Positions 1 through 11,511 of a stretch of 11,511 nt of DNA are shown here, piece by piece. The notes beneath the pieces are model-generated. The model was not told where the DNA came from, did no database searches, and worked only from the letters and a program-made list of their open reading frames with translations. The position numbers were made by a program, and so were the translations under genes. Within the stretch, counting starts at the first letter, position 1, and each line of letters starts with the position of its first letter. This stretch comes from a virus, in the UHGV virus genome UHGV-0110285, one strand, 5' to 3'.

Positions 1-46
1 AGGTTGCTCCGGGCTATGAAATAGAAAAATGAATCCGTTGAAGCCT
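1..46. other. Host chromosomal flank (B arm of attL, gal side of attB-lambda)
   Basis: Sequence left of the core (..GAAGCCTGCTTTTTTATACTAA) matches the recalled bacterial attB arm rather than the phage P arm; the right side of the core continues as the lambda P' arm (AGTTGGCATTATAAAAAAGC..). Confidence 0.7.
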
Positions 47-61
47 GCTTTTTTATACTAA
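47..61. other. attL: Lambda att 15-bp common core (O) GCTTTTTTATACTAA
   Basis: Exact 15-bp lambda att core read directly at 47-61. Confidence 0.95.
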
Positions 62-134
62 GTTGGCATTATAAAAAAGCATTGCTTATCAATTTGTTGC
101 AACGAACAGGTCACTATCAGTCAAAATAAAATCA
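62..134. promoter_or_regulatory. attL P' arm: IHF H' site (TATCAATTTGTTG, about 86-99) and Int arm-type sites P'1/P'2 (AGGTCACTAT CAGTCAAAAT, 108-127)
   Basis: Recognisable IHF consensus WATCAANNNNTTR and tandem arm-type Int sites immediately 3' of int, as in lambda attP/attL. Confidence 0.8.
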
Positions 135-1205
135 TTATTTGATTTCAATTTTGTCCCACTCCCTGCCTCTGTCATCACGATACTGTGATGCCATGGTGTC
201 CGACTTATGCCCGAGAAGATGTTGAGCAAACTTATCGCTTATCTGCTTCTCATAGAGTCTTGCAGACAAACTGCGCAACTCGTGAAAGGTAGGCGGATCC
301 CCTTCGAAGGAAAGACCTGATGCTTTTCGTGCGCGCATAAAATACCTTGATACTGTGCCGGATGAAAGCGGTTCGCGACGAGTAGATGCAATTATGGTTT
401 CTCCGCCAAGAATCTCTTTGCATTTATCAAGTGTTTCCTTCATTGATATTCCGAGAGCATCAACATGCAATGCTGTTGGGATGGCAATTTTTACGCCTGT
501 TTTGCTTTGCTCGACATAAAGATATCCATCTACGATATCAGACCACTTCATTTCGCATAAATCACCAACTCGTTGCCCGGTAACAACAGCCAGTTCCATT
601 GCAAGTCTGAGCCAACATGGTGATGATTCTGCTGCTTGATAAATTTTCAGGTATTCGTCAGCCGTAAGTCTTGATCTCCTTACCTCTGATTTTGCTGCGC
701 GAGTGGCAGCGACAGGGTTTGTTGTTATATGGCCTTCAGCTATTGCCTCTCGGAATGCATCGCTCAGTGTTGATCTGATTAACTTGGCTGACGCCGCCTT
801 GCCCTCGTCTATGTATCCATTGAGCATTGCCGCAATTTCTTTTGTGGTGATGTCTTCAAGTGGAGCATCAGGCAGACCCCTCCTTATTGCTTTAATTTTG
901 CTCATGTAATTTATGAGTGTCTTCTGCTTGATTCCTCTGCTGGCCAGGATTTTTTCGTAGCGATCAAGCCATGAATGTAACGTAACGGAATTATCACTGT
1001 TGATTCTCGCTGTCAGAGGCTTGTGTTTGTGTCCTGAAAATAACTCAATGTTGGCCTGTATGGCTTCAGTGATTGCGATTCGCCTGTCTCTGCCTAATCC
1101 AAACTCTTTACCCGTCCTTGGGTCCCTGTAGCAGTAATATCCATTGTTTCTTATATAAAGGTTAGGGGGTAAATCCCGGCGCTCATGACTTCGCCTTCTT
1201 CCCAT
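135..1205 (-). CDS. int: Lambda integrase Int (tyrosine recombinase), 356 aa
   Basis: ATG-initiated 356-aa ORF MGRRRSHERRDLPPNLYIRNNGYYCYRDPRTGKEFGLG.. recognised as lambda Int; 3' end abuts the P' arm. Confidence 0.97.
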   Translation of the reverse strand: MGRRRSHERRDLPPNLYIRNNGYYCYRDPRTGKEFGLGRDRRIAITEAIQANIELFSGHKHKPLTARINSDNSVTLHSWLDRYEKILASRGIKQKTLINYMSKIKAIRRGLPDAPLEDITTKEIAAMLNGYIDEGKAASAKLIRSTLSDAFREAIAEGHITTNPVAATRAAKSEVRRSRLTADEYLKIYQAAESSPCWLRLAMELAVVTGQRVGDLCEMKWSDIVDGYLYVEQSKTGVKIAIPTALHVDALGISMKETLDKCKEILGGETIIASTRREPLSSGTVSRYFMRARKASGLSFEGDPPTFHELRSLSARLYEKQISDKFAQHLLGHKSDTMASQYRDDRGREWDKIEIK

Positions 1206-1401
1206 TTCTGATCCTCTTCAAAAGGCTACCTGTTACTGGTCGATTTAAGTCAACCTTTACCGCTGATTCGTGGAACAGATACTCTCTTCCATCCTTAACC
1301 GGAGGAGGGAATATCCTGCACTCGCGTACCCATCGACGAACTGTTTCAAGGCTTCTTGGGCGTCGCTGGCGTGCGTTCCATTCCTGAAGTGTCAAGTACA
1401 T
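1183..1401 (-). CDS. xis: Lambda excisionase Xis, 72 aa
   Basis: 72-aa ORF MYLTLQEWNARQRRPRSLETVRRWVRECRIFPPPVKDGREYLF.. ; 23-nt overlap with int start as in lambda. Confidence 0.95.
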   Translation of the reverse strand: MYLTLQEWNARQRRPRSLETVRRWVRECRIFPPPVKDGREYLFHESAVKVDLNRPVTGSLLKRIRNGKKAKS

Positions 1402-1425
1402 CGCAAAGTCTCCGCAATTACACGC

Positions 1426-1450
1426 AAGAAAAAACCGCCATCAGGCGGCT
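1426..1450 (-). terminator. Putative intrinsic terminator on minus strand (hairpin CCGCC-TGAT-GGCGG followed by a T6 run) between orf55 and xis
   Basis: Plus strand reads AAAAAACCGCCATCAGGCGGCTT; the minus-strand RNA would form a GC hairpin followed by UUUUUU. Confidence 0.5.
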
Positions 1451-1608
1451 TGGTGTTCTTTCAGTTCTTCAATTCGAATATTGGTTACGTCTGCATGTGC
1501 TATCTGCGCCCATATCATCCAGTGGTCGTAGCAGTCGTTGATGTTCTCTGCTTCGATAACTCTGTTGAATGGCTCTCCATTCCATTCTCCTGTGACTCGG
1601 AAGTGCAT
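1441..1608 (-). CDS. Small hypothetical protein (lambda orf55-like), 55 aa; absent from the supplied ORF track because it is under 60 aa
   Basis: Manually translated minus-strand ORF MHFRVTGEWNGEPFNRVIEAENINDCYDHWMIWAQIAHADVTNIRIEELKEHQAA with GGAG 8 nt upstream of the ATG and in-frame stops immediately upstream. Confidence 0.55.
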   Translation of the reverse strand: MHFRVTGEWNGEPFNRVIEAENINDCYDHWMIWAQIAHADVTNIRIEELKEHQAA

Positions 1609-1696
1609 TTATCATCTCCATAAAACAAAACCCGCCGTAGCGAGTTCAGATAAAATAAATCCCCGCGAGTGCGAGGATTGTTATGTAATATTGGGT

Positions 1697-1978
1697 TTAA
1701 TCATCTATATGTTTTGTACAGAGAGGGCAAGTATCGTTTCCACCGTACTCGTGATAATAATTTTGCACGGTATCAGTCATTTCTCGCACATTGCAGAATG
1801 GGGATTTGTCTTCATTAGACTTATAAACCTTCATGGAATATTTGTATGCCGACTCTATATCTATACCTTCATCTACATAAACACCTTCGTGATGTCTGCA
1901 TGGAGACAAGACACCGGATCTGCACAACATTGATAACGCCCAATCTTTTTGCTCAGACTCTAACTCATTGATACTCAT
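1697..1978 (-). CDS. ea8.5: Lambda Ea8.5 (small zinc-binding protein, function unknown), 93 aa
   Basis: 93-aa ORF MSINELESEQKDW.. with Cys/His motifs (SPCRHHEG, CPLC); AAGGAG RBS upstream; position between xis and ea22 as in lambda. Confidence 0.85.
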   Translation of the reverse strand: MSINELESEQKDWALSMLCRSGVLSPCRHHEGVYVDEGIDIESAYKYSMKVYKSNEDKSPFCNVREMTDTVQNYYHEYGGNDTCPLCTKHIDD

Positions 1979-2169
1979 TTATAAACTCCTTGCAATGTAT
2001 GTCGTTTCAGCTAAACGGTATCAGCAATGTTTATGTAAAGAAACAGTAAGATAATACTCAACCCGATGTTTGAGTACGGTCATCATCTGACACTACAGAC
2101 TCTGGCATCGCTGTGAAGACGACGCGAAATTCAGCATTTTCACAAGCGTTATCTTTTACAAAACCGATC

Positions 2170-2718
2170 TCACTCTCCTTTGATGCGAATGCCAGCGTCA
2201 GACATCATATGCAGATACTCACCTGCATCCTGAACCCATTGACCTCCAACCCCGTAATAGCGATGCGTAATGATGTCGATAGTTACTAACGGGTCTTGTT
2301 CGATTAACTGCCGCAGAAACTCTTCCAGGTCACCAGTGCAGTGCTTGATAACAGGAGTCTTCCCAGGATGGCGAACAACAAGAAACTGGTTTCCGTCTTC
2401 ACGGACTTCGTTGCTTTCCAGTTTAGCAATACGCTTACTCCCATCCGAGATAACACCTTCGTAATACTCACGCTGCTCGTTGAGTTTTGATTTTGCTGTT
2501 TCAAGCTCAACACGCAGTTTCCCTACTGTTAGCGCAATATCCTCGTTCTCCTGGTCGCGGCGTTTGATGTATTGCTGGTTTCTTTCCCGTTCATCCAGCA
2601 GTTCCAGCACAATCGATGGTGTTACCAATTCATGGAAAAGGTCTGCGTCAAATCCCCAGTCGTCATGCATTGCCTGCTCTGCCGCTTCACGCAGTGCCTG
2701 AGAGTTAATTTCGCTCAC
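2170..2718 (-). CDS. ea22: Lambda Ea22, 182 aa (GTG start overlapping the orf73 stop as GTGA)
   Basis: 182-aa ORF MSEINSQALREAAEQAMHDDWGFDADLF.. ; size and position match lambda Ea22. Confidence 0.85.
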   Translation of the reverse strand: MSEINSQALREAAEQAMHDDWGFDADLFHELVTPSIVLELLDERERNQQYIKRRDQENEDIALTVGKLRVELETAKSKLNEQREYYEGVISDGSKRIAKLESNEVREDGNQFLVVRHPGKTPVIKHCTGDLEEFLRQLIEQDPLVTIDIITHRYYGVGGQWVQDAGEYLHMMSDAGIRIKGE

Positions 2719-2936
2719 TTCGAACCTCTCTGTTTACTGATAAGTTCCAGATCCTCCTGGCAACTTGCACAAGTCCGACAACCCTGAACGACCAGGCGTC
2801 TTCGTTCATCTATCGGATCGCCACACTCACAACAATGAGTGGCAGATATAGCCTGGTGGTTCAGGCGGCGCATTTTTATTGCTGTGTTGCGCTGTAATTC
2901 TTCAATTTCTGATGCTGAATCAATGATGTCTGCCAT
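2715..2936 (-). CDS. TraR/DksA-family C4 zinc-finger protein (lambda orf73-like), 73 aa
   Basis: 73-aa ORF with CCECGDPIDERRR...CRTCASCQ, the four-Cys zinc finger typical of TraR/DksA secondary-channel RNAP binders. Confidence 0.75.
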   Translation of the reverse strand: MADIIDSASEIEELQRNTAIKMRRLNHQAISATHCCECGDPIDERRRLVVQGCRTCASCQEDLELISKQRGSK

Positions 2937-2989
2937 CTTCCATTAATCCCTGAATTGTTGGTTAATACGCTTGAGGGTGAATGCGAATA

Positions 2990-3013
2990 ATAAAAAAGGA
3001 GCCTGTAGCTCCC
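2990..3013 (-). terminator. Putative intrinsic terminator on minus strand (GGGAGC-TACAG-GCTCC hairpin followed by a T6 run) between the orf61 region and orf73
   Basis: Plus strand AAAAAAGGAGCCTGTAGCTCCC; minus-strand RNA would be a hairpin plus UUUUUU. Confidence 0.45.
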
Positions 3014-3034
3014 TGATGATTTTGCTTTTCATGT

Positions 3035-3346
3035 TCATCGTTCCTTAAAGACGCCGTTTAACATGCCGATTGCCAGGCTTAAATGAGTCGGTGTGAATCC
3101 CATCAGCGTTACCGTTTCGCGGTGCTTCTTCAGTACGCTACGGCAAATGTCATCGACGTTTTTATCCGGAAACTGCTGTCTGGCTTTTTTGATTTCAGAA
3201 TTAGCCTGACGGGCAATGCTGCGAAGGGCGTTTTCCTGCTGAGGTGTCATTGAACAAGTCCCATGTCGGCAAGCATAAGCACACAGAATATGAAGCCCGC
3301 TGCCAGAAAAATGCATTCCGTGGTTGTCATACCTGGTCTCTCTCAT
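3035..3346 (-). CDS. Hypothetical protein in the lambda orf61 position; open for 103 codons here
   Basis: ATG start overlaps the orf63 stop by 20 nt (lambda-like arrangement); the frame stays open to 3035. Confidence 0.55.
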   Translation of the reverse strand: MRETRYDNHGMHFSGSGLHILCAYACRHGTCSMTPQQENALRSIARQANSEIKKARQQFPDKNVDDICRSVLKKHRETVTLMGFTPTHLSLAIGMLNGVFKER

Positions 3347-3518
3347 CTGCTTCTGCTTTCGCCACCATCATTTCCAGCTTTTGTGAAAGGGATGCGGCTA
3401 ACGTATGAAATTCTTCGTCTGTTTCTACTGGTATTGGCACAAACCTGACTCCAATTTGAGCGAGGCTATGTGCCATCTCGATACTCGTTCTTAACTCAAC
3501 GGGAGATGCTTTGTGCAT
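3327..3518 (-). CDS. Lambda orf63-like hypothetical protein, 63 aa
   Basis: 63-aa [29 protein letters not shown].. in the expected position and with the expected overlaps. Confidence 0.7.
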   Translation of the reverse strand: MHKASPVELRTSIEMAHSLAQIGVRFVPIPVETDEEFHTLAASLSQKLEMMVAKAEADERDQV

Positions 3519-3673
3519 ACAGCTCCCCGTTTATTATTTATCTCCTCAGCCAGCCGCTGTGCTTTCAGGGGATTTCGGATAACAGAAAGGCCGGGAAATA
3601 CCCAGCCTCGCTTCGTAACGGAGTAGACGAAAGTGATCGTGCCTACGCGGATATTATCGTGAGGATGTTTCAT
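3491..3673 (-). CDS. Lambda orf60a-like hypothetical protein, 60 aa (ATG at 3673 overlapping the exo stop as ATGA; the track ORF starts two codons earlier at 3679)
   Basis: [29 protein letters not shown].. ; translational-coupling overlap with exo. Confidence 0.65.
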
Positions 3674-4350
3674 CGCCATTGCTCCCCAAATACAAAACCA
3701 ATTTCAGCCAGTGCCTCGTCCATTTTTTCGATGAACTCCGGCACCATCTCGTCAAAACTCGCCATGTAATTTTCATCCCGCTCAACCACGACATAATGCA
3801 GGCCTTCACGCTTCATTCGTGGGTCATAGTTGGCAAAGTACCAGGCATCTTTTCGCGTCACCCACATGCTGTACTGCACCTGGGCCATGTAAGCTGACTT
3901 TATGGCCTCGAAACCACCGAGCCGGAATTTCATGAAATCCCGGGAGGTAAACGGGCATTTCAGTTCAAGGCCGTTGCCGTCACTGCATAAACCATCGGGA
4001 GAGCAGGCGGTGCGCATACTTTCGTCGCGATAGATGATCGGGGATTCAGTAACATTCACGCCGGAAGTAAACTCAAACAGGGCTCTGGCGTCGTTCTCGT
4101 ACTGTTTTCCCCAGGCCAGCGCCTTAGCATTAACTTCCGGAGCCACACCGGTGCAAACCTCAGCCAGCAGGGTGTGGAAGTAGGACATTTTCATGTCAGG
4201 CCACTTCTTTCCTGAGCGGGGCTTTGCTATCACGTTGTGAACTTCTGAAGCGGTGATGACGCCGAGCCGTAATTTGTGCCATGCATCATCCCCCTGTTCG
4301 ACAGCTCTCACGTCGATCCCGGTACGCTGCAGGATAATGTCCGGTGTCAT
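3670..4350 (-). CDS. exo: Lambda exonuclease (Red alpha), 226 aa
   Basis: 226-aa [46 protein letters not shown].. recognised as lambda Exo; ATGA overlap with the bet stop. Confidence 0.96.
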
Positions 4351-5132
4351 GCTGCCACCTTCTGCTCAGTGGCTTTCTGTTTCAGGAATCCAAGAGCTTT
4401 CACTGCTTCGGCCTGTGTCAGTTCTGACGATGCGCGAATGTCGCGGCGAAATATCTGGGAACAGAGCGGCAATAAGTCGTCATCCCATGTTTTATCCAGG
4501 GCGATCAGCAGAGTGTTAATCTCCTGCATGGTTTCATCGTTAACCGGAGTGATGTCGCGTTCTGGCTGACGTTCTGCAGTGTATGCAGTATTTTCGACAA
4601 TGCGCTCGGCTTCATCCTTGTCATAGATACCAGCAAATCCGAAGGCCAGACGGGCACACTGAATCATGGCTTTATGCCGTAGCATCCGTTTGGGATGCGA
4701 CTGCCACGGTCCGGTGATTTCTCTGCCTTCGCGGGTTTTGAATGGTTCGCGGCGGCATTCATCCATCCACTCGGTAACGCAGATCGGATGATTACGGTCC
4801 TTGCGGTAAATCCGGCATGTACATGATTCATTGTCCTGCTCAAAGTCCATGCCATCAAACTGCTGGTTTTCATTGATGATACGGGACCAGCCATCAACGC
4901 CCACCACCGGAACGATGCCGTTCTGCTTGTCAGGGAAGGCGTAAATTTCTTTCGTCCACGGATTAAGGCCGTACTGGTTGGCGACGATCAACAATGCGAT
5001 GAACTGCGCATCGCTGGCATCACCTTTAAATGCCGTCTGGCGAAGAGTGGTGATCAGTTCCTGTGGGTCGACAGAATCCATGCCGACGCGTTCAGCCAGC
5101 TTCCCAGCCAGCGTTGCGAGTGCTGTACTCAT
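4347..5132 (-). CDS. bet: Lambda Beta single-strand annealing protein (Red beta), 261 aa
   Basis: 261-aa [62 protein letters not shown].. recognised as lambda Bet. Confidence 0.96.
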
Positions 5133-5137
5133 CCGTT

Positions 5138-5434
5138 TTATACCTCTGAATCAATATCAACCTGGTGGTGAGCAATGGTTTCAACCATGTACCGGATGTG
5201 TTCTGCCATGCGCTCCTGAAACTCAACATCGTCATCAAACGCACGGGTAATGGCTTTTTTGCTGGCCCCGTGGCGTTGTAAATGATCGATGCAGAGTGAT
5301 TCAAACAGGTGCTGGGGCAGGCCTTTTTCCATGTCGTCTGCCAGTTCTGCCTCTTTCTCTTCACGGGCGATCTGCTGGTAGTGACGCGCCCAGCTCTGAG
5401 CCTCAAGACGATCCTGAATGTAATAAGCGTTCAT
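5138..5434 (-). CDS. gam: Lambda Gam (RecBCD inhibitor), short 98-aa form only
   Basis: 98-aa [63 protein letters not shown].. ; an in-frame stop lies 18 codons upstream of the ATG, so the longer 138-aa form is not encoded. Confidence 0.9.
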
Positions 5435-5488
5435 GGCTGAACTCCTGAAAATGGCTGTGAAAATATCGCCCGCGAAATGCCAGGCTGA

Positions 5489-5602
5489 TTAGGAAAACAG
5501 GAAAGGGGATTAGTGATTCAGGCCGTTACCGCGTCCGTCGAGAAAAACTTCCACGAGCAAATCACGGGTATCTGGCTGAAAGAGGGGGTTATTAAGGCGT
5601 GA
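5489..5602 (+). pseudogene. 3' remnant of the gene normally upstream of rusA (product unknown), truncated at the gam/nin junction
   Basis: Open frame ..[27 protein letters not shown] ends with a TGA that overlaps the rusA GTG start (GTGA coupling) but has no start codon; its upstream end runs into gam-derived sequence. Confidence 0.4.
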
Positions 5603-5961
5603 ATACCTACAGTATCACATTACCCTGGCCTCCGAGCAATAATCGCTATTACCGCCATAATCGCGGGCGCACGCACATCAGCGCAGAAGGGCAGGCATAC
5701 CGCGATAACGTCACCCGAATCATTAAAAACGCAATGCTGGATATCGGCCTGGCTATGCCAGTGAAAATCCGTATTGAGTGCCACATGCCGGATCGCCGTC
5801 GCCGTGACCTGGATAATCTGCAAAAAGCCGCTTTTGACGCACTCACCAAAGCAGGTTTCTGGCTGGATGATGCTCAGGTCGTTGATTACCGCGTTGTGAA
5901 GATGCCGGTTGTCAAAGGTGGAAAGCTGGAACTGACCATCACTGAACTGGGAGATGAATGA
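5599..5961 (+). CDS. rusA: RusA Holliday-junction resolvase, 120 aa (GTG start)
   Basis: 120-aa [40 protein letters not shown].. recognised as the RusA family found in nin regions of lambdoid prophages (DLP12, phage 82). Confidence 0.9.
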
Positions 5962-6098
5962 TGTTTGAGTTTTATATGGCAGAACTTCTTCGCCACCGCT
6001 GGATGCGCCTGCGCTTATATCGTTTCCCCAGTTCTGTTTTGACCGATTACCGAATACTGAGGAATTACGCCAAAACCCTGACAGGAGCAGGAGTATGA
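5958..6098 (+). CDS. ylcG: YlcG-like small protein, 46 aa; absent from the supplied ORF track because it is under 60 aa
   Basis: Manually translated [49 protein letters not shown] starting 4 nt before the rusA stop; 46 codons, matching the size and position of DLP12 ylcG between rusA and Q. Confidence 0.55.
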
Positions 6099-6183
6099 AG
6101 TCAGAGATAACAATCAACTAATACTGTTTTGTTGATTTTTGCTTGTAATTGGCGTTCTGGTCTGATTTTTGTGGAGTAAGTTG

Positions 6184-6567
6184 ATGCGTGATATTCAGAT
6201 GGTTCTTGAGCGTTGGGGAGCGTGGGCGGCTAATAATCATGAAGATGTGACCTGGTCGTCCATTGCCGCCGGTTTTAAGGGATTAATTACTTCAAAAGTA
6301 AAATCTCGCCCGCAATGTTGTGACGATGACGCGATGATTATTTGCGGGTGCATGGCCCGTCTGAAAAAGAACAACAGCGATTTGCACGATTTATTAGTAG
6401 ATTATTATGTAGTCGGTATGACATTCATGTCACTGGCAGGTAAGCATTGCTGCTCTGATGGTTATATCGGGAAAAGGTTACAGAAGGCTGAGGGTATAAT
6501 TGAAGGGATGTTAATGGCATTAGATATCCGGTTAGAGATGGATATCGTTGTTAATAACTCTAATTAA
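6184..6567 (+). CDS. quuD: Late-gene antiterminator Q (QuuD-like, non-lambda Q type), 127 aa from the ATG at 6184 (the track ORF begins at a TTG at 6169)
   Basis: [24 protein letters not shown].. with Cys-rich stretch [16 protein letters not shown]; GGAG 8 nt upstream of the ATG; sits between rusA/ylcG and the lysis genes. Confidence 0.8.
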
Positions 6568-6600
6568 TACGCCAATTATTTACTAAAAGTTATTAAAAAT

Positions 6601-6619
6601 GGGGCGTTGAAACGCCCCC
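6601..6619 (-). terminator. Intrinsic terminator for minus-strand (porin) transcripts: GGGGCGT-TGAA-ACGCCCC followed by AUUUUU on the minus strand
   Basis: Perfect 7-8 bp GC stem read directly; the T-run is on the minus-strand side. Confidence 0.6.
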
Positions 6620-6658
6620 AAAAATAAAGGGTAATATATAACAGAAGGTTTGTATAGT

Positions 6659-6706
6659 TAGAAGCAAGGTTGTGCTTCTAAAGGAAGTGGCTTGAGGGAG
6701 CCACTT
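6659..6706. other. Two back-to-back stem-loops with identical geometry (8-bp stem, 6-nt loop): TAGAAGCA-AGGTTG-TGCTTCTA at 6659-6680 and AAGTGGCT-TGAGGG-AGCCACTT at 6685-6706
   Basis: Perfect inverted repeats read directly; neither has a flanking T-run. Confidence 0.6.
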
Positions 6707-6710
6707 ATAT

Positions 6711-6745
6711 GTTGGGGAGGCAAAGCCTCCCACAACATATCTTTT
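6711..6745 (+). terminator. Intrinsic terminator for plus-strand transcripts leaving Q: GTTG(G)GGGAGGC-AAA-GCCTCCC(A)CAAC followed by UAUCUUUU
   Basis: 11-bp stem with one bulge plus a downstream U-run on the plus strand. Confidence 0.55.
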
Positions 6746-6755
6746 AGTAATCAAA

Positions 6756-7838
6756 TTAGAACTGGTAAACCATACCTACAGCAACGATATCATCGGTAGC
6801 AACGCCAGATGCTTTCGTGAAATCGCTCTTATCAATCAGGTTGATTTTGTAGTCAACAAAAGTGGACATATTTTTGTTGAAGTAATAGGTTGCACCTACA
6901 TCAACATATTCAACCAGGTCCTGATCACCCCAAACACCCAAGTCTTTTCCTTTAGAATGCAGGTAAGCAACGGATGGACGCAGGCCGAAGTCGAACTGAT
7001 ATTGTGCAACAGCTTCGAAGTTTTGTGCTTTGTTGGCAATATGGTTATTACCAAAAACAGTCATGTTCTGGGTTTCAGAATAGGTGGTGGCCAGATAGAT
7101 GTTGTTCGCATCATATTTCAGACCAGCTGCCCATACTTCAGCATTTTGACCAGAAGCATTCAGACCGTTGTTACCGTAGATAACCTGATTATTAGTGCGA
7201 TCAGATTTAGCATAGGTTGCACCCACGCCGAATCCTTCATACTCATAAGTAGTTGAGAAACCGAAACCATCGCCATTAGCTTCAGTTACTTCATTTCGGT
7301 CATTTTTGCCCTGATACTGAGCTGCAAAGTTCAGGCCATCAACCAGACCAAAGAAGTCGTTGTTACGATAAGTTGCAACACCTGTGGTGCGACCAGTCAT
7401 GAATACATCTGTTTGGGTCCAGGTATCGCCACCGAATTCTGGCAGAACGTCAGTCCACGCACCGATGTCGTATGCTACACCGTAGTTACGGCCGTAATCG
7501 ATGGAGCCGTAGTCACCGAATTTCAGGCCAGCGAAGGCAAGACGGGTTTTATCTTTGGAGGAACCTTGAGATTCAGCGCGGTTGCCTTTGAATTCATATT
7601 CCCACTGACCGAAACCAGTCAGTTGATCGTTGATTTGGGTTTCACCTTTGAAGCCAAGACGGGCATAAGTAGTATCACCATCATCTGCATCATTAGAGGA
7701 GAAGTAGTGTTTAGCATTAACTTTCCCGTACAGATCCAGCTTGTTACTGTCTTTATTATAAATTTCAGCTGCCTGAGCAGACATCGCCATCAGTACTGAT
7801 GCAGCTACAGCAGAAATTGCCACTGTTAATTTTTTCAT
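6756..7838 (-). CDS. nmpC: Phage-borne general porin of the OmpC/OmpF superfamily (Lc/NmpC/OmpD-like), 360 aa, apparently intact
   Basis: Signal peptide [23 protein letters not shown] then AEIYNK..; 16-strand porin-like sequence ending in a C-terminal Phe (..VGMVYQF); convergent with Q, the arrangement known from PA-2 lc and DLP12 nmpC. Confidence 0.9.
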
Positions 7839-8060
7839 CGTGAGCCCTTTTTTTTGAACTATTATTAAAAAATGATGTCACTGCGCGATAAATATTCATC
7901 TAATCAATATGATTATTTCAAGATGTAAGTTTTGGTTTCTCGTTTGATTTGTGAAGTAGATCTCTATTTTTATCTGAACTTTTTTCTATCGAATCCTATT
8001 CATGGCTCTTGGCTGAATAAAAATAAATCTATTAGCCAATTTATATTAACGGTTGTTATT
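7839..8060 (-). promoter_or_regulatory. AT-rich 5' control region of the porin gene (promoter not resolved)
   Basis: About 220 bp of AT-rich non-coding sequence immediately upstream of the porin ATG on the minus strand. Confidence 0.3.
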
Positions 8061-8266
8061 TATAAGTGCTCTATGATTTGAAGGTTCAATTTAAATCGGC
8101 TAAAAATAACACTAGAAATTATTTGTTGGTTATTTGTTGAGATTTGCTTATGTATTTGTAGTGGTGTTTTCAATACTCGGTAGCATTCTCGCAAATATCA
8201 TTTAGTGGTTTACGTACGTAAAAAATTGGTTATGCTGTTAAGAGTGGTTACTTCGTCACACAGCTT

Positions 8267-8300
8267 AAACCCGCCGTCGAGCGGGTTTTTCCATTTTTTG
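8267..8300 (+). terminator. Intrinsic terminator on the plus strand about 115 nt upstream of the holin (tR'-like): AAACCCGC-CGTCGA-GCGGGTTT followed by UUCCAUUUUUU
   Basis: Perfect 8-bp stem plus a U-rich tail on the plus strand. Confidence 0.6.
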
Positions 8301-8411
8301 AGTCTCGATATTAGCTGATAACCCAATACCTGAGTTATTCACTGACTCCGAGTCTGTTACGTTTCGTAGTATTCCCTCAATTTACACCCGCTTTGTCTGC
8401 GAGGTGGGGTT

Positions 8412-8627
8412 ATGAAATCCATGGATAAGTTAACAACGGGTGTCGCCTATGGCACCTCAGCAGGTAGTGCCGGGTACTGGTTTTTACAGCTGCTAGATAA
8501 AGTCACGCCCTCACAGTGGGCGGCAATTGGAGTGCTGGGTAGCCTGGTATTTGGCCTGCTGACGTACCTGACAAACCTTTATTTCAAGATTAAAGAAGAT
8601 AAGCGCAAGGCTGCGAGAGGTGAATAA
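8412..8627 (+). CDS. essD: Class II holin/pinholin of the phage 21 S type, 71 aa, with dual-start motif MKSM
   Basis: [71 protein letters not shown]: two transmembrane segments, charged C-terminus, Met1/Met4 starts; GAGGTGG RBS. Confidence 0.9.
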
Positions 8628-9124
8628 TGCCTCCATCATTACGAAAAGCCGTTGCTGCTGCTATTGGTGGCGGAGCAATTGCTATAGCATCAGTGTTAAT
8701 TACTGGCCCAAGTGGTAACGATGGTCTGGAAGGTGTCAGCTACATACCATACAAAGATATTGTTGGTGTATGGACTGTATGTCACGGGCATACAGGAAAA
8801 GACATCATGCTCGGTAAAACGTATACCAAAGCAGAATGCAAAGCCCTCCTGAATAAAGACCTTGCCACGGTCGCCAGACAAATTAACCCGTACATCAAAG
8901 TCGATATACCGGAAACAACGCGCGGTGCTCTTTACTCGTTCGTTTACAACGTGGGTGCTGGAAATTTCAGAACATCGACGCTTCTTCGCAAAATAAACCA
9001 GGGCGATATCAAAGGCGCATGTGATCAGCTACGTCGCTGGACATATGCTGGCGGTAAGCAATGGAAAGGTCTCATGACTCGTCGTGAGGTTGAGCGTGAA
9101 ATTTGTTTGTGGGGTCAGCAATGA
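8627..9124 (+). CDS. rrrD: SAR (signal-anchor-release) endolysin, lysozyme of the phage 21 R type, 165 aa
   Basis: N-terminal Gly/Ala-rich weakly hydrophobic segment [20 protein letters not shown] followed by a lysozyme-like domain; ATG overlaps the holin TAA (TAATG). Confidence 0.92.
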
Positions 9125-9579
9125 ACAGAGTAACCGCGATTATCTCCGCTCTGGTTATCTGCATCATCGTCTGCCTGTCATGGGCTGTTAATCATTACCG
9201 TGATAACGCAATCGCCTACAAAGAGCAGCGCGATAACAAGGCCAGTGAACTGGAGAAGGCGAACGCCACCATCGCTGACATGCGGAAGCGTCAACGTGAT
9301 GTAGCAGAACTCGACGCAAGATACACAAAGGAGCTTGCTGATGCTAACGCGACTATCGAAAGTCTCCGTGCTGATGTTTCTGCTGGGCGTAAGCGCCTGC
9401 AAGTCGCCGCCACCTGTGCAAAGTCAACGACCGGAGCCAGCGGCATGGGCGATGGAGAAAGCCCAAGACTTACAGCAGATGCTGAACTCAATTATTACCG
9501 TCTCCGAAGTGGAATCGACAAGATAACCGCGCAGGTTAACTACCTGCAGGAATACATCAGGACGCAATGCCTGAAATAA
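9121..9579 (+). CDS. rzpD: Rz spanin inner-membrane subunit (i-spanin), 152 aa from the ATG at 9121 overlapping the endolysin stop (the track ORF starts at 9103)
   Basis: [28 protein letters not shown].. : N-terminal transmembrane segment then a coiled-coil-like periplasmic domain; position after the endolysin. Confidence 0.85.
9341..9526 (+). CDS. rzoD: Rz1 outer-membrane lipoprotein spanin (o-spanin) embedded in the +1 frame of Rz, 61 aa from the ATG at 9341 (the track ORF starts at a TTG at 9335)
   Basis: [20 protein letters not shown]|[16 protein letters not shown].. : lipobox ending in Cys, proline-rich mature part; AAGGAG 9 nt upstream; fully nested in Rz. Confidence 0.8.
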
Positions 9580-9610
9580 TTTTTTTGCAAATCACAAAGT
9601 CCATTTAATG

Positions 9611-9636
9611 AGCCTCGCGATGCGGGGCTTTTTTTA
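9611..9636 (+). terminator. Intrinsic terminator downstream of Rz: AGCCUCGC-GAU-GCGGGGCU followed by UUUUUUU
   Basis: GC-rich 8-bp stem (one G-U pair) and a T7 run on the plus strand, 32 nt after the Rz stop. Confidence 0.7.
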
Positions 9637-9784
9637 CATCTGAATTTCACAGCGCATCTCACGCGCATATTACATCACCCGAGCCTTTCAGAAAGTTGAG
9701 CCTGAGAACTGCCGTATATGGTGGCGACCATCTCGGGGCGGCTTTTCTGTGAGACAGGCTCACTTTCTAAAAGGTAAAGACGCT

Positions 9785-10273
9785 ATGAACCAATTAGAAG
9801 AAAAGCTTCAAAGAATGATTTCCTTATACAAGGAAGATAACTGCCAAAAAGTTCCTGAAAACATCGCAGAGTTAATGGAATTGGCAAGTGAATTTTCTGG
9901 CATGCTTAAGTCGTCAGGTGTTCGGTCAGCGTTCTTTGTTGAAATGCTGATGCACGGCGGACTTATGGCAACAATGAGACGTGTAATGGAAGACCAGAGA
10001 AAAGAACCTCCTCAGGTATACGTTTTGTCATCGAAGAAAACTGGGCTAACCAAAATTGGGTATTCATCCAACATTCCACAACGCATCAAATCGCTTGGCA
10101 ACTCTGGACCAGACTGCTTGAAGCTTGAGTGCCTGATCCCTGGTGGAAGAGAAACTGAAAACATGCTTCATCGCAAATTTGCCGCAAAGAGAAAGCACGG
10201 TGAATGGTTCGCCCTGTCCAAGGATGACATTGAGGGATTGAAATCTGTAGCGATTACTTCTGATGGCTATTAA
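9785..10273 (+). CDS. Hypothetical protein with a C-terminal T5orf172/GIY-YIG-like domain, 162 aa from the ATG at 9785 (the track ORF starts at a GTG at 9749); sits where lambda carries bor
   Basis: C-terminal half QVYVLSSKKTGLTKIGYSSNIPQRIKSLGNSGPDCLKLECLIPGGRETENMLHRKFAAKRKHGEWFALSKDDI fits the T5orf172 pattern (VYVL..KIG...R..L...E..LH..F...R..GEWF); AGGTAAAGA RBS before the ATG; N-terminal 75 aa helical with no recognised similarity. Confidence 0.6.
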   Translation: MNQLEEKLQRMISLYKEDNCQKVPENIAELMELASEFSGMLKSSGVRSAFFVEMLMHGGLMATMRRVMEDQRKEPPQVYVLSSKKTGLTKIGYSSNIPQRIKSLGNSGPDCLKLECLIPGGRETENMLHRKFAAKRKHGEWFALSKDDIEGLKSVAITSDGY

Positions 10274-10310
10274 TGCTTGTTTAGAGCAATTTTCATAACA
10301 ACTCTTCATT

Positions 10311-10345
10311 ACAAAGCCCATCTACTGGTGGGCTTGATAATGAAA
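10311..10345. repeat. Copy 1 of an imperfect direct repeat (ACAAAGCCCATCTACTGGTGGGCTTGATAATG); also folds as a hairpin AAGCCCA/TGGGCTT
   Basis: Aligned by eye with 10667-10705; shares the ACAAAGCC, CTAC, GTGG and TTGATAATG blocks. Confidence 0.45.
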
Positions 10346-10587
10346 CCGTGATTTACATCCCCACAATCCGGGTATGTAAAAGATAGTTCAGGCGAGAACG
10401 GATTTAACTAAATCTGTGCGCCACCAGTTAACGGCAGTACCACGAAACAACCCAAGCCAGTAAGTGGGGAAATAACACCGGCAGCCACTGAAAGATGAAC
10501 CTCCTGCCTTATGGCAAAAAAGATTCTTTGTGGTGGCGGACTGATGGAAAGACATCCTAATTTCAGCCAAACATTGAAGGAGTTGTT

Positions 10588-10659
10588 ATGTCAGCAGAAG
10601 GTTTCAATAACCCATCAAAATTCCGGGATGAGTGGGATAGCAGCGTAAAGAGTAAGTGA
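10588..10659 (+). CDS. Possible 23-codon small ORF (MSAEGFNNPSKFRDEWDSSVKSK) with a strong Shine-Dalgarno; may be a micro-protein or the 5' remnant of a lost gene
   Basis: AAGGAG 5 nt upstream of the ATG; short; lies between the two direct-repeat copies. Confidence 0.25.
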   Translation: MSAEGFNNPSKFRDEWDSSVKSK

Positions 10660-10666
10660 TGCCATC

Positions 10667-10951: not shown

Positions 10952-11362
10952 TTAGTGCGGAAATATTTGTGTAGTGTTCTGAATGTTCTCAGTAAAGAGT
11001 AATGAATTATCAAAGGTATAGTAATACCTTTTGTTTTCGTGGATATTTGTAATCCATCTGAAAACCCCTGCTGTAGCAAGATTTTTCCTGTATTCGTAAA
11101 ATGATAACTCTCCTGATTTGAATCCTTTTAAGGTGGCTTCTATAAGGCATTTATTTTTTGAAAATCTTACATTTACAACCTTACCCTGTCCTTTTATTAA
11201 AACCGTATTATCGTTTTCAAGAACAAGATGAATATTCTCTGTGGCTAAATAGTAAATGTAATGTGAGACATTGTGACGTTTTAGTTCAGAATAAAACCAG
11301 TGATAGTTTAAATTATTTCGCACTTTATCGAATATTTGTTTAAAAATGGCAACCTGAGCCAT
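10952..11362 (-). CDS. AT-rich hypothetical protein, 136 aa from the ATG at 11362 (the track ORF starts at 11377); tentatively YbcV-like
   Basis: [38 protein letters not shown].. ; GGAAGG RBS 7 nt upstream of the second ATG; 136 aa equals the recalled size of DLP12 YbcV, which lies in the same place and orientation relative to the lysis genes; strongly AT-biased codon usage. Confidence 0.45.
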
Positions 11363-11511
11363 TGTAGTACCTTCCATGTGATATGAGGGGCGTAGTCTGC
11401 ACGATTATCTAAATTGCTTCAATCTGGTCTGATCTGTTTTCTGAGCAATTCAGTAATTGATCCTACCCACGTAATATGGACACAGGCCTAAGCGAGGTTC
11501 TTGTTTTCAAA

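Follow-up and report, generated by a model that had tools for sequence, protein, structure and literature searches.

The locus under study raises the question of how a lambda-type early-left arm came to stand directly beside rusA, exactly where the two parts meet, and what the join means for the element that carries it. The window, that is, the whole stretch of 11,511 nucleotides that was analysed, is laid out as a leftward block from int to gam, followed by a rightward rusA block, a leftward porin gene and rightward lysis genes, according to the open reading frame (ORF) list and tblastn. The initial annotation had described it as an early-left arm fused to the rusA/late region, lacking repressor, pL/N and replication functions and hence cryptic, and this description is supported by tblastn and by comparison with the att-lambda prophage of D217-5.

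We examined the left end and the left arm. The lambda homology of the window begins precisely at the annotated att core (lambda 27724), and ybhC is the left neighbour of the window in three genomes, namely LR-71-1, D217-5 and GCA_014106035.1. Because the 15-bp core is located at 47-61, lambda homology starts from it and ybhC lies next to it, we assign the window to the attL side of a lambda-type prophage at E. coli att-lambda. Int and Xis are both full-length members of the lambda family. The lambda-type leftward genes were said earlier to run without interruption from int to gam, which the ORF list and tblastn confirm. The features of this part are:

47-61: att core of attL (B-O-P'), exact GCTTTTTTATACTAA, with ybhC-side bacterial DNA on its left and the lambda P' arm and int on its right
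135-1205, minus strand: int, full length, 99.4% aa identity to lambda Int over the whole protein
1183-1401, minus strand: xis, full length, 98.6% aa identity to lambda Xis
1441-3679, minus strand: early-left accessory genes (55-aa ORF, ea8.5, ea22, TraR/DksA-like, orf61-like, DUF1382 and DUF1317), 95-100% aa identity to lambda, their names resting also on Pfam labels from a sister assembly
3670-4350, minus strand: exo (Red), full length, 97.8% aa identity to lambda Exo
4347-5132, minus strand: bet (Red), full length, 99.6% aa identity to lambda Bet
5138-5434, minus strand: gam (Red), 98-aa form, the same 98-aa ORF being annotated in D217-5

The long 138-aa gam frame annotated in lambda is closed in the window and only the 98-aa form is encoded, a form that is annotated in many phages as well as in D217-5. 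Within 5435-5460, immediately before the gam ATG, the window seems to have a T that lambda lacks.

The right arm begins with rusA, 164 bp away from gam, and runs to the end of the window:

5599-5961, plus strand: rusA, Holliday-junction resolvase of 120 aa, full length, 100% aa identity to D217-5 RusA, Pfam PF05866
5958-6098, plus strand: ylcG, 100% aa identity to D217-5, Pfam Phage_YlcG
6184-6567, plus strand: quuD, Q-type antiterminator, 100% aa identity to D217-5, Pfam Phage_antitermQ
6756-7838, minus strand: intact OmpC/NmpC-type porin gene of 360 aa, 100% aa identity to the D217-5 porin, Pfam Porin_1
8412-8627, plus strand: essD holin, 100% aa identity to D217-5, Pfam holin
8627-9124, plus strand: rrrD lysozyme, 94.5% aa identity to D217-5, Pfam lysozyme
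9121-9579, plus strand: Rz with embedded Rz1 (about 9335-9526), Rz with 88% aa identity to D217-5, Pfam Phage_lysis
9749-10273, plus strand: T5orf172/MUG113-domain ORF of 174 aa, Pfam PF10544 and PF13455, located where D217-5 has KilA-N
10952-11377, minus strand: DUF1398 (ybcV-like) gene, 100% aa identity to D217-5, PF07166
11458-11511: 54 bases from one end of an IS3-family insertion that continues beyond the window; homology to other genomes ends at 11457

The genes for int/xis, Red, the resolvase, Q and lysis, which the initial annotation had listed as kept, all align over their full length by tblastn. RusA belongs to its family over the full length: besides the PF05866 match, it is identical to the PGAP-annotated RusA of D217-5, and its gene shows 96.9% DNA identity to K-12 rusA. 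Residues D70, D72, K76, D90 and D91 are critical in RusA (PMC1636454), and all five occur in the window translation together with the arginine-rich R66-R69. Because these residues are kept, the RusA of the window would be active if transcribed. Rz and Rz1 share 60% and 45% aa identity with their lambda counterparts. No tRNA or Rfam RNA match was found in the window. The IS3-family element is inserted between the DUF1398 (ybcV-like) gene and a DUF3950 (ylcI-like) gene. Like DLP12, the element can be classed as a cryptic lambdoid prophage; its left arm is of the lambda type and its right arm of the DLP12 type.

The closest reference is the D217-5 att-lambda prophage (NZ_CP076268.1, about 843.3-887.2 kb), which lies between ybhC and ybhB, looks complete and is apparently intact. 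It occupies the same site as the window element, matches it at 99.98% from int to the kilR tail and has the same gene order, rusA-ylcG-quuD-porin-essD-rrrD-Rz, with rusA, ylcG, quuD, porin and essD 100% identical as proteins. Unlike the window, it keeps 8,741 bp between codon 49 of kilR and the ybcO tail as well as all head and tail genes; moreover, it has KilA-N in place of the T5orf172 ORF, and its rrrD and Rz alleles differ.

Four features define the region between gam and rusA:

5510-5571, minus strand: 3' remnant of a KilR-type cell-division-inhibitor gene, consisting of the stop, the last 19 codons and 2 extra bases, with the first 49 codons gone
5516-5517: end of homology to reference lambda, a natural mosaic boundary beyond which the sequence is as in D217-5, PhiR26_1 and Turner
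5569-5571: deletion junction, TAT common to both parents, within an imperfect match (CACGGGTAT on the left and CACAGGTTAT on the right)
5570-5602, plus strand: 3' remnant of ybcO (DUF1364), the last 10 codons and the stop, which overlaps the rusA GTG as GTGA

The breakpoint had been placed at 5490-5520, which is not borne out, since the base-level comparison puts it at 5569-5571, 50-80 bp further right. By BLAST, window 1-5571 equals 2332-7902 of the D217-5 prophage with 99.98% identity and 1 mismatch, and window 5566-9634 equals 16638-20685 of the same prophage, with a jump of 8,741 bp at the junction. In the three-way comparison, the left side of D217-5 reads CACGGGTAT followed by AAGTG, the right side reads CACAGGTTAT followed by CTGGC, and the window reads CACGGGTATCTGGC; the last base specific to the left parent is thus 5568 and the first specific to the right parent is 5572. 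The junction string is GCAAATCACGGGTATCTGGCTGAAAG. Independent loci agree on both sides. The rusA-side homology starts at 5566 in K-12 DLP12 and in 8 other loci that encode the identical RusA. In a megablast of 5135-5965, gam-side matches reach 5571 in isolated phages, among them PhiR26_1 (99.1%) and Turner, as well as in prophages of E. coli by the hundreds (up to 100% in D217-5), and rusA-side matches start at about 5563-5566. The span of 5435-5602 that had been given for the junction does contain the breakpoint, but only 5572-5602 derives from the other side. Likewise, on the question whether 5435-5600 is contiguous with gam in known intact phages, contiguity holds for 5435-5571 and does not hold for 5572-5602.

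How the breakpoint can be misplaced is seen from the comparison with lambda. Window 47-5516 aligns with lambda 27724-33193 at 98.6% identity, and the match stops inside lambda kil. Many viable phages have a KilR-type gene where lambda has kil, and because such phages carry this gene beside gam, 5516 is the natural boundary between kil and kilR and no scar. We ruled out 5516 as the breakpoint, as the alignments with D217-5 and with the phages show 5517-5571 to be native kilR sequence. When a breakpoint is placed by reference lambda alone, a kil versus kilR mosaic boundary is easily mistaken for a scar.

Two genes are truncated at the junction. The gene beside gam in D217-5 encodes a 68-aa 'phage encoded cell division inhibitor', which matches Pfam PF27398 KilR in related loci; residues 50-68 of the D217-5 KilR match window 5569-5513 at 100% (tblastn), and the surviving 19-codon piece is a non-functional remnant. 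On the other side, the 3' end of a plus-strand gene translationally coupled to rusA had been noticed. It is the ybcO tail and the GTGA overlap is real, but it amounts to just 10 codons (5570-5602). The 4-nt overlap of ybcO and rusA is native, being annotated in both D217-5 and K-12. The plus-strand frame remains open back to 5489, and the sequence upstream of 5570 is the antisense of the kilR tail. A chimeric plus-strand ORF of 29 codons, from a GTG at 5513 to the TGA at 5602, joins this antisense kilR tail in frame to the last 10 ybcO codons; immediately upstream of it is the purine-rich GGAAAGGGGA, and its stop overlaps the rusA GTG. We regard this ORF as accidental.

Compared with D217-5, the 8,741 bp lost comprise most of kilR, two genes for hypothetical proteins, an S24 repressor gene, a cro-like gene, ydaT, O, P, the genes for a PRTase and a NADAR protein, ybcN, ninE and most of ybcO. 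We searched the window by tblastn (E <= 1e-3) and found no homologue of any lambda protein from Kil to NinI. The same search with the D217-5 proteins from the gene after kilR through YbcO (2 hypotheticals, S24 repressor, cro-like, YdaT, O, P, PRTase, NADAR, 2 small ORFs, YbcN, NinE and YbcO) also gave no homologue in the window. Repressor and immunity genes are thus absent, with no match for cI, cro, cII, cIII, N, rexAB, the S24 repressor, the cro-like protein or YdaT, and so are replication genes, with no match for O and P of either lambda or D217-5. The initial annotation had listed kil, cIII, N, rexAB, cI, cro, cII, O, P and nin genes as missing; the list agrees with tblastn, except that a 19-codon kilR tail remains. 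This tail is also the sole exception to the absence of kil, cIII, N and cI homologues, whose presence would have spoken against the cryptic reading.

Very probably, the junction was left behind when a single intramolecular deletion took 8,741 bp out of a lambda-like att-lambda prophage, a recent event of ordinary prophage decay; D217-5 stands here as a proxy for the direct ancestor and its rrrD and Rz differ (94.5% and 88% aa), so that the deleted interval could differ in content or length. The ancestor would have been a lambda-like prophage at att-lambda essentially identical to the intact D217-5 prophage. One break would have fallen in codon 49 of the leftward kilR and the other 10 codons before the end of the rightward ybcO, and the ends were presumably joined by illegitimate recombination at the 3-bp microhomology TAT inside a 9-10-nt imperfect match, through replication slippage or end joining guided by this microhomology. 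A microhomology of 3 bp is expected by chance at about 5% of random junctions. No end of an insertion sequence (IS) and no repeat was found at 5300-5800, where both flanks run straight into the parental sequences. We also considered a deletion mediated by an IS, a repeat or a recombinase and rejected it, as the junction has no IS ends, repeats or recombinase site.

The same junction is present in the NCBI assembly GCA_014106035.1, on contig JABXVE010000001.1 (4.56 Mb), which we found by exact look-up of the RusA sequence and in which gam and rusA are spaced as in the window. This sister assembly aligns ungapped over all 11,511 bases of the window with 6 mismatches. It also carries two further deletions relative to D217-5: one of 18,698 bp from nohD' to lom', which removes all head and tail genes (L041 18097-18098), and one of 2,182 bp inside the tail-fibre gene (L041 18487-18488). 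There is a 2-bp microhomology at each of these joins, and the joint probability of sharing at least 3, 2 and 2 bp at the three junctions is ~0.001 under a random-sequence model. In addition, it has a 1,258-bp IS3 insertion (L041 15860-17117) that encodes a 387-aa IS3-family transposase; the D217-5 matches on its two sides overlap by 3 bp. As the same IS3 lies at the end of the window, the window element may well share this structure, including the virion-gene deletion. The lineage carrying the junction would thereby have gone from a prophage of roughly 44 kb to about 15.7 kb, by two more deletions and the IS3 insertion. Decay of this type is treated as common in a review of 'grounded' prophages (PMC6379469).

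With the early regions gone, expression of the retained genes is the next point. By analogy with lambda, the early promoters and operators of both directions would have been located in the deleted interval, and the deletion would also have taken any N-type antiterminator, the replication origin and the nin genes as far as ybcO. The gam-bet-exo...xis-int and rusA-ylcG-quuD operons would now stand back to back across the 164 bp, with no recognisable promoter between them. In a simple consensus scan, we found no sigma-70-like site in 5435-5598 nor on the plus strand of 5000-5598, and promoter-like sites in 5000-6800 are no more numerous than in shuffled sequence. A new promoter for rusA or gam is hence an unsupported candidate, there being none in 5435-5598 and the total count falling within that of the shuffles. 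Two terminator-like hairpins with T-rich tails lie on the minus strand at 5468-5485 and 5551-5567, between the junction and gam; as consensus matches only, they would hinder read-through from the right arm into gam-bet-exo. Without a pR-type promoter there would be no Q, and the lysis genes would stay unread; with no replication and with Int/Xis uninduced, the element would be silent, judging from the consensus scan and lambda biology. Transcriptional silence of the element is therefore what we expect, apart from the porin gene, which is a separate leftward transcription unit and may still be expressed.

This bears on the reading that the deletion was favoured, or the remnant kept, for the benefit of the host, which we consider improbable although it fares best among the alternatives. 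According to it, lethal functions (KilR, N-dependent early genes and in-situ replication by O/P) were removed, Exo/Bet/Gam/RusA, the porin and the lysis genes were kept, and the new upstream sequence might activate rusA. The positions of the breaks agree with this, as the left one inactivates kilR and the right one lies beyond O and P, so that every function classically regarded as lethal is lost, and the flanking genes are all intact, a pattern that would fit survival after induction. Deletions of immunity and replication modules also recur independently in other strains and in DLP12. Moreover, K-12 rusA is quiescent unless an IS is inserted upstream, and IS2 and IS10 insertions activate it (PMC1636454); in the window, the 29-codon chimeric ORF (5513-5602) with its purine-rich upstream stretch overlaps the rusA start. 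A more specific form of the idea, in which rusA behind this translationally coupled 29-codon leader forms a host-controlled recombination-repair module (RusA, possibly Red) that is expressed and kept, we find slightly less likely still. Against host benefit, the plus strand of 5000-5598, ahead of rusA, holds no promoter-like site, the further loss of DNA and the IS3 insertion in this lineage have the look of simple decay, and the junction is limited to one lineage. In addition, one of the 5,571 bases of the left arm and two positions in the initial 1.75 kb of the right arm deviate from the intact D217-5 prophage. With arms 99.9-100% identical to that prophage, the deletion is recent, and this explains the intact state of the retained genes without any need for selection. 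Judged from these sequences, intact retained genes should not be taken as evidence for retention by selection.

The evidence on the two arms is also relevant to an origin by illegitimate recombination between two molecules, the resident att-lambda prophage and either a superinfecting phage or a second, DLP12-like prophage. Overall, the right arm has 97.7% identity to D217-5 and the left arm 99.98%, and rusA-quuD-porin-lysis modules usually occur several times per E. coli genome (median 6 places), both of which would suit such an exchange. However, 5566-7315 differs from D217-5 at 2 sites only, both private to the window, and the differences of the right arm cluster at 7316-9565, which leaves about 1.7 kb of near identity next to the junction. 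The far right end of the element in GCA_014106035.1 is back to 100% identity with D217-5, and the element there is flanked by both att-lambda neighbours, ybhC and the GGDEF gene that also borders the D217-5 prophage; this indicates that no chromosomal rearrangement took place. Because of the identity near the junction and at the far right, both flanks are best placed in one D217-5-type prophage in situ, and a two-molecule origin is very unlikely. Inter-prophage recombination as the origin was rejected because of this 1.7-kb offset of the divergence; a separate homologous (mosaic) exchange accounts better for the divergent rrrD/Rz patch. Of the 6 mismatches between the window and GCA_014106035.1, 4 fall within 44 bp of rrrD (window 8919-8962), a cluster that may reflect gene conversion of a short stretch by the lysozyme gene of another prophage.

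An assembly artefact, in which two prophage fragments were wrongly joined, can be set aside as extremely unlikely. In its favour, E. coli genomes contain lambdoid prophages in repeated form, which often leads to misassembly, and the junction is missing from 5,426 complete E. coli genomes. However, the identical junction lies inside a 4.56-Mb contig of another assembly, in which 6 positions are unlike the window, the gam-rusA arrangement occurs in 5 of the 24 contigs read for this RusA (the junction string being confirmed in GCA_014106035.1), and the join shares 3 bp only, where assembler chimeras normally span long repeats. The deletion scar truncates two known genes, has both flanks matching one reference prophage and recurs in an independent assembly, and on this comparison of sequences we hold it to be real and beyond chance. 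By megablast, no single-piece match across the junction was obtained in the 5,426 complete E. coli genomes and 50,697 phage records, and the exact junction was not found in the GTDB representative genomes, metagenome contigs and viral contigs searched. Because it is absent from all those collections, the support for the junction comes from one lineage. This specific junction appears to be undescribed, confined to that lineage and mechanistically ordinary.

Comparison with other elements places the deletion in a wider group. Lambda (NC_001416) is like the window in its att core and in the int-xis-ea8.5-ea22-exo-bet-gam arm (98.6% over 5.47 kb). It differs in having kil instead of kilR by gam, the full cIII-N-rex-cI-cro-cII-O-P-nin region, another Q, S and R, ninG/rap instead of rusA, and no porin gene. 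Laboratory immunity-deleted ('cryptic') lambda lysogens and recombineering prophages lie at att-lambda, keep int-xis-exo-bet-gam and have no lytic growth because of internal deletions. The recombineering prophages retain cI857, pL and N for Red induction and are deleted from cro rightward into bioA, whereas in the window element the regulators are the lost part, which leaves Red without a known route of expression.

Three strains, LR-71-1, CFSAN061772 and PI12, carry independent deletions that join the early-left region to ybcO/rusA, with the immunity and replication modules gone. In them, gam (with or without kil, cIII and ea10) lies 0.1-2.6 kb from ybcO/rusA; their breakpoints differ, and none has the junction sequence of the window. 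LR-71-1 has an IS5 at the join. CFSAN061772 (L006) is a hybrid at the argU/DLP12 site in which bet and rusA are truncated, and PI12 (L007) has lost bet and keeps the full ybcO, followed by a tet(B) region. Of the 5,426 complete genomes, only CFSAN061772 and PI12 have a gam-side and a rusA-side piece joined in one match (no more than about 0.9 kb apart).

The window thus offers a base-precise example of a lambda-type prophage turning cryptic by one microhomology deletion, with integrase, Red, resolvase, Q-type antiterminator, porin and lysis genes left intact for a time. The element is expected to give no immunity, plaques or induced lysis, and to provide incoming lambdoid phages with homologous sequence for recombination; beyond correct annotation its significance is small.

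K-12 DLP12 resembles the right arm of the window from the ybcO tail onward, with identities of 96.9% for rusA-ylcG-quuD and 92% for the porin and lysis genes. Like the window, it is a lambdoid remnant without immunity and replication functions, and it has its own scar, in which exoD' is joined to peaD' (a P fragment). It differs in its argU site and its integrase intD, in the loss of bet, gam and most of exo, in keeping ybcN, ninE and the full ybcO, and in having nmpC split by IS5, where the porin gene of the window is intact.

Two minor observations concern single segments. Window 9635-10660 has no match to D217-5, which carries KilA-N and an 85-aa ORF there; many unrelated phages of the lambda-like and P22-like types encode the identical T5orf172 protein directly behind their lysis genes, and its gene seems to behave as a mobile accessory gene. 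The DLP12 scar of exoD' beside peaD' (L044 3099-3688) belongs to the same class of deletion as that of the window, with different breakpoints, and its exoD fragment is 96.4% identical to window 3644-3949.
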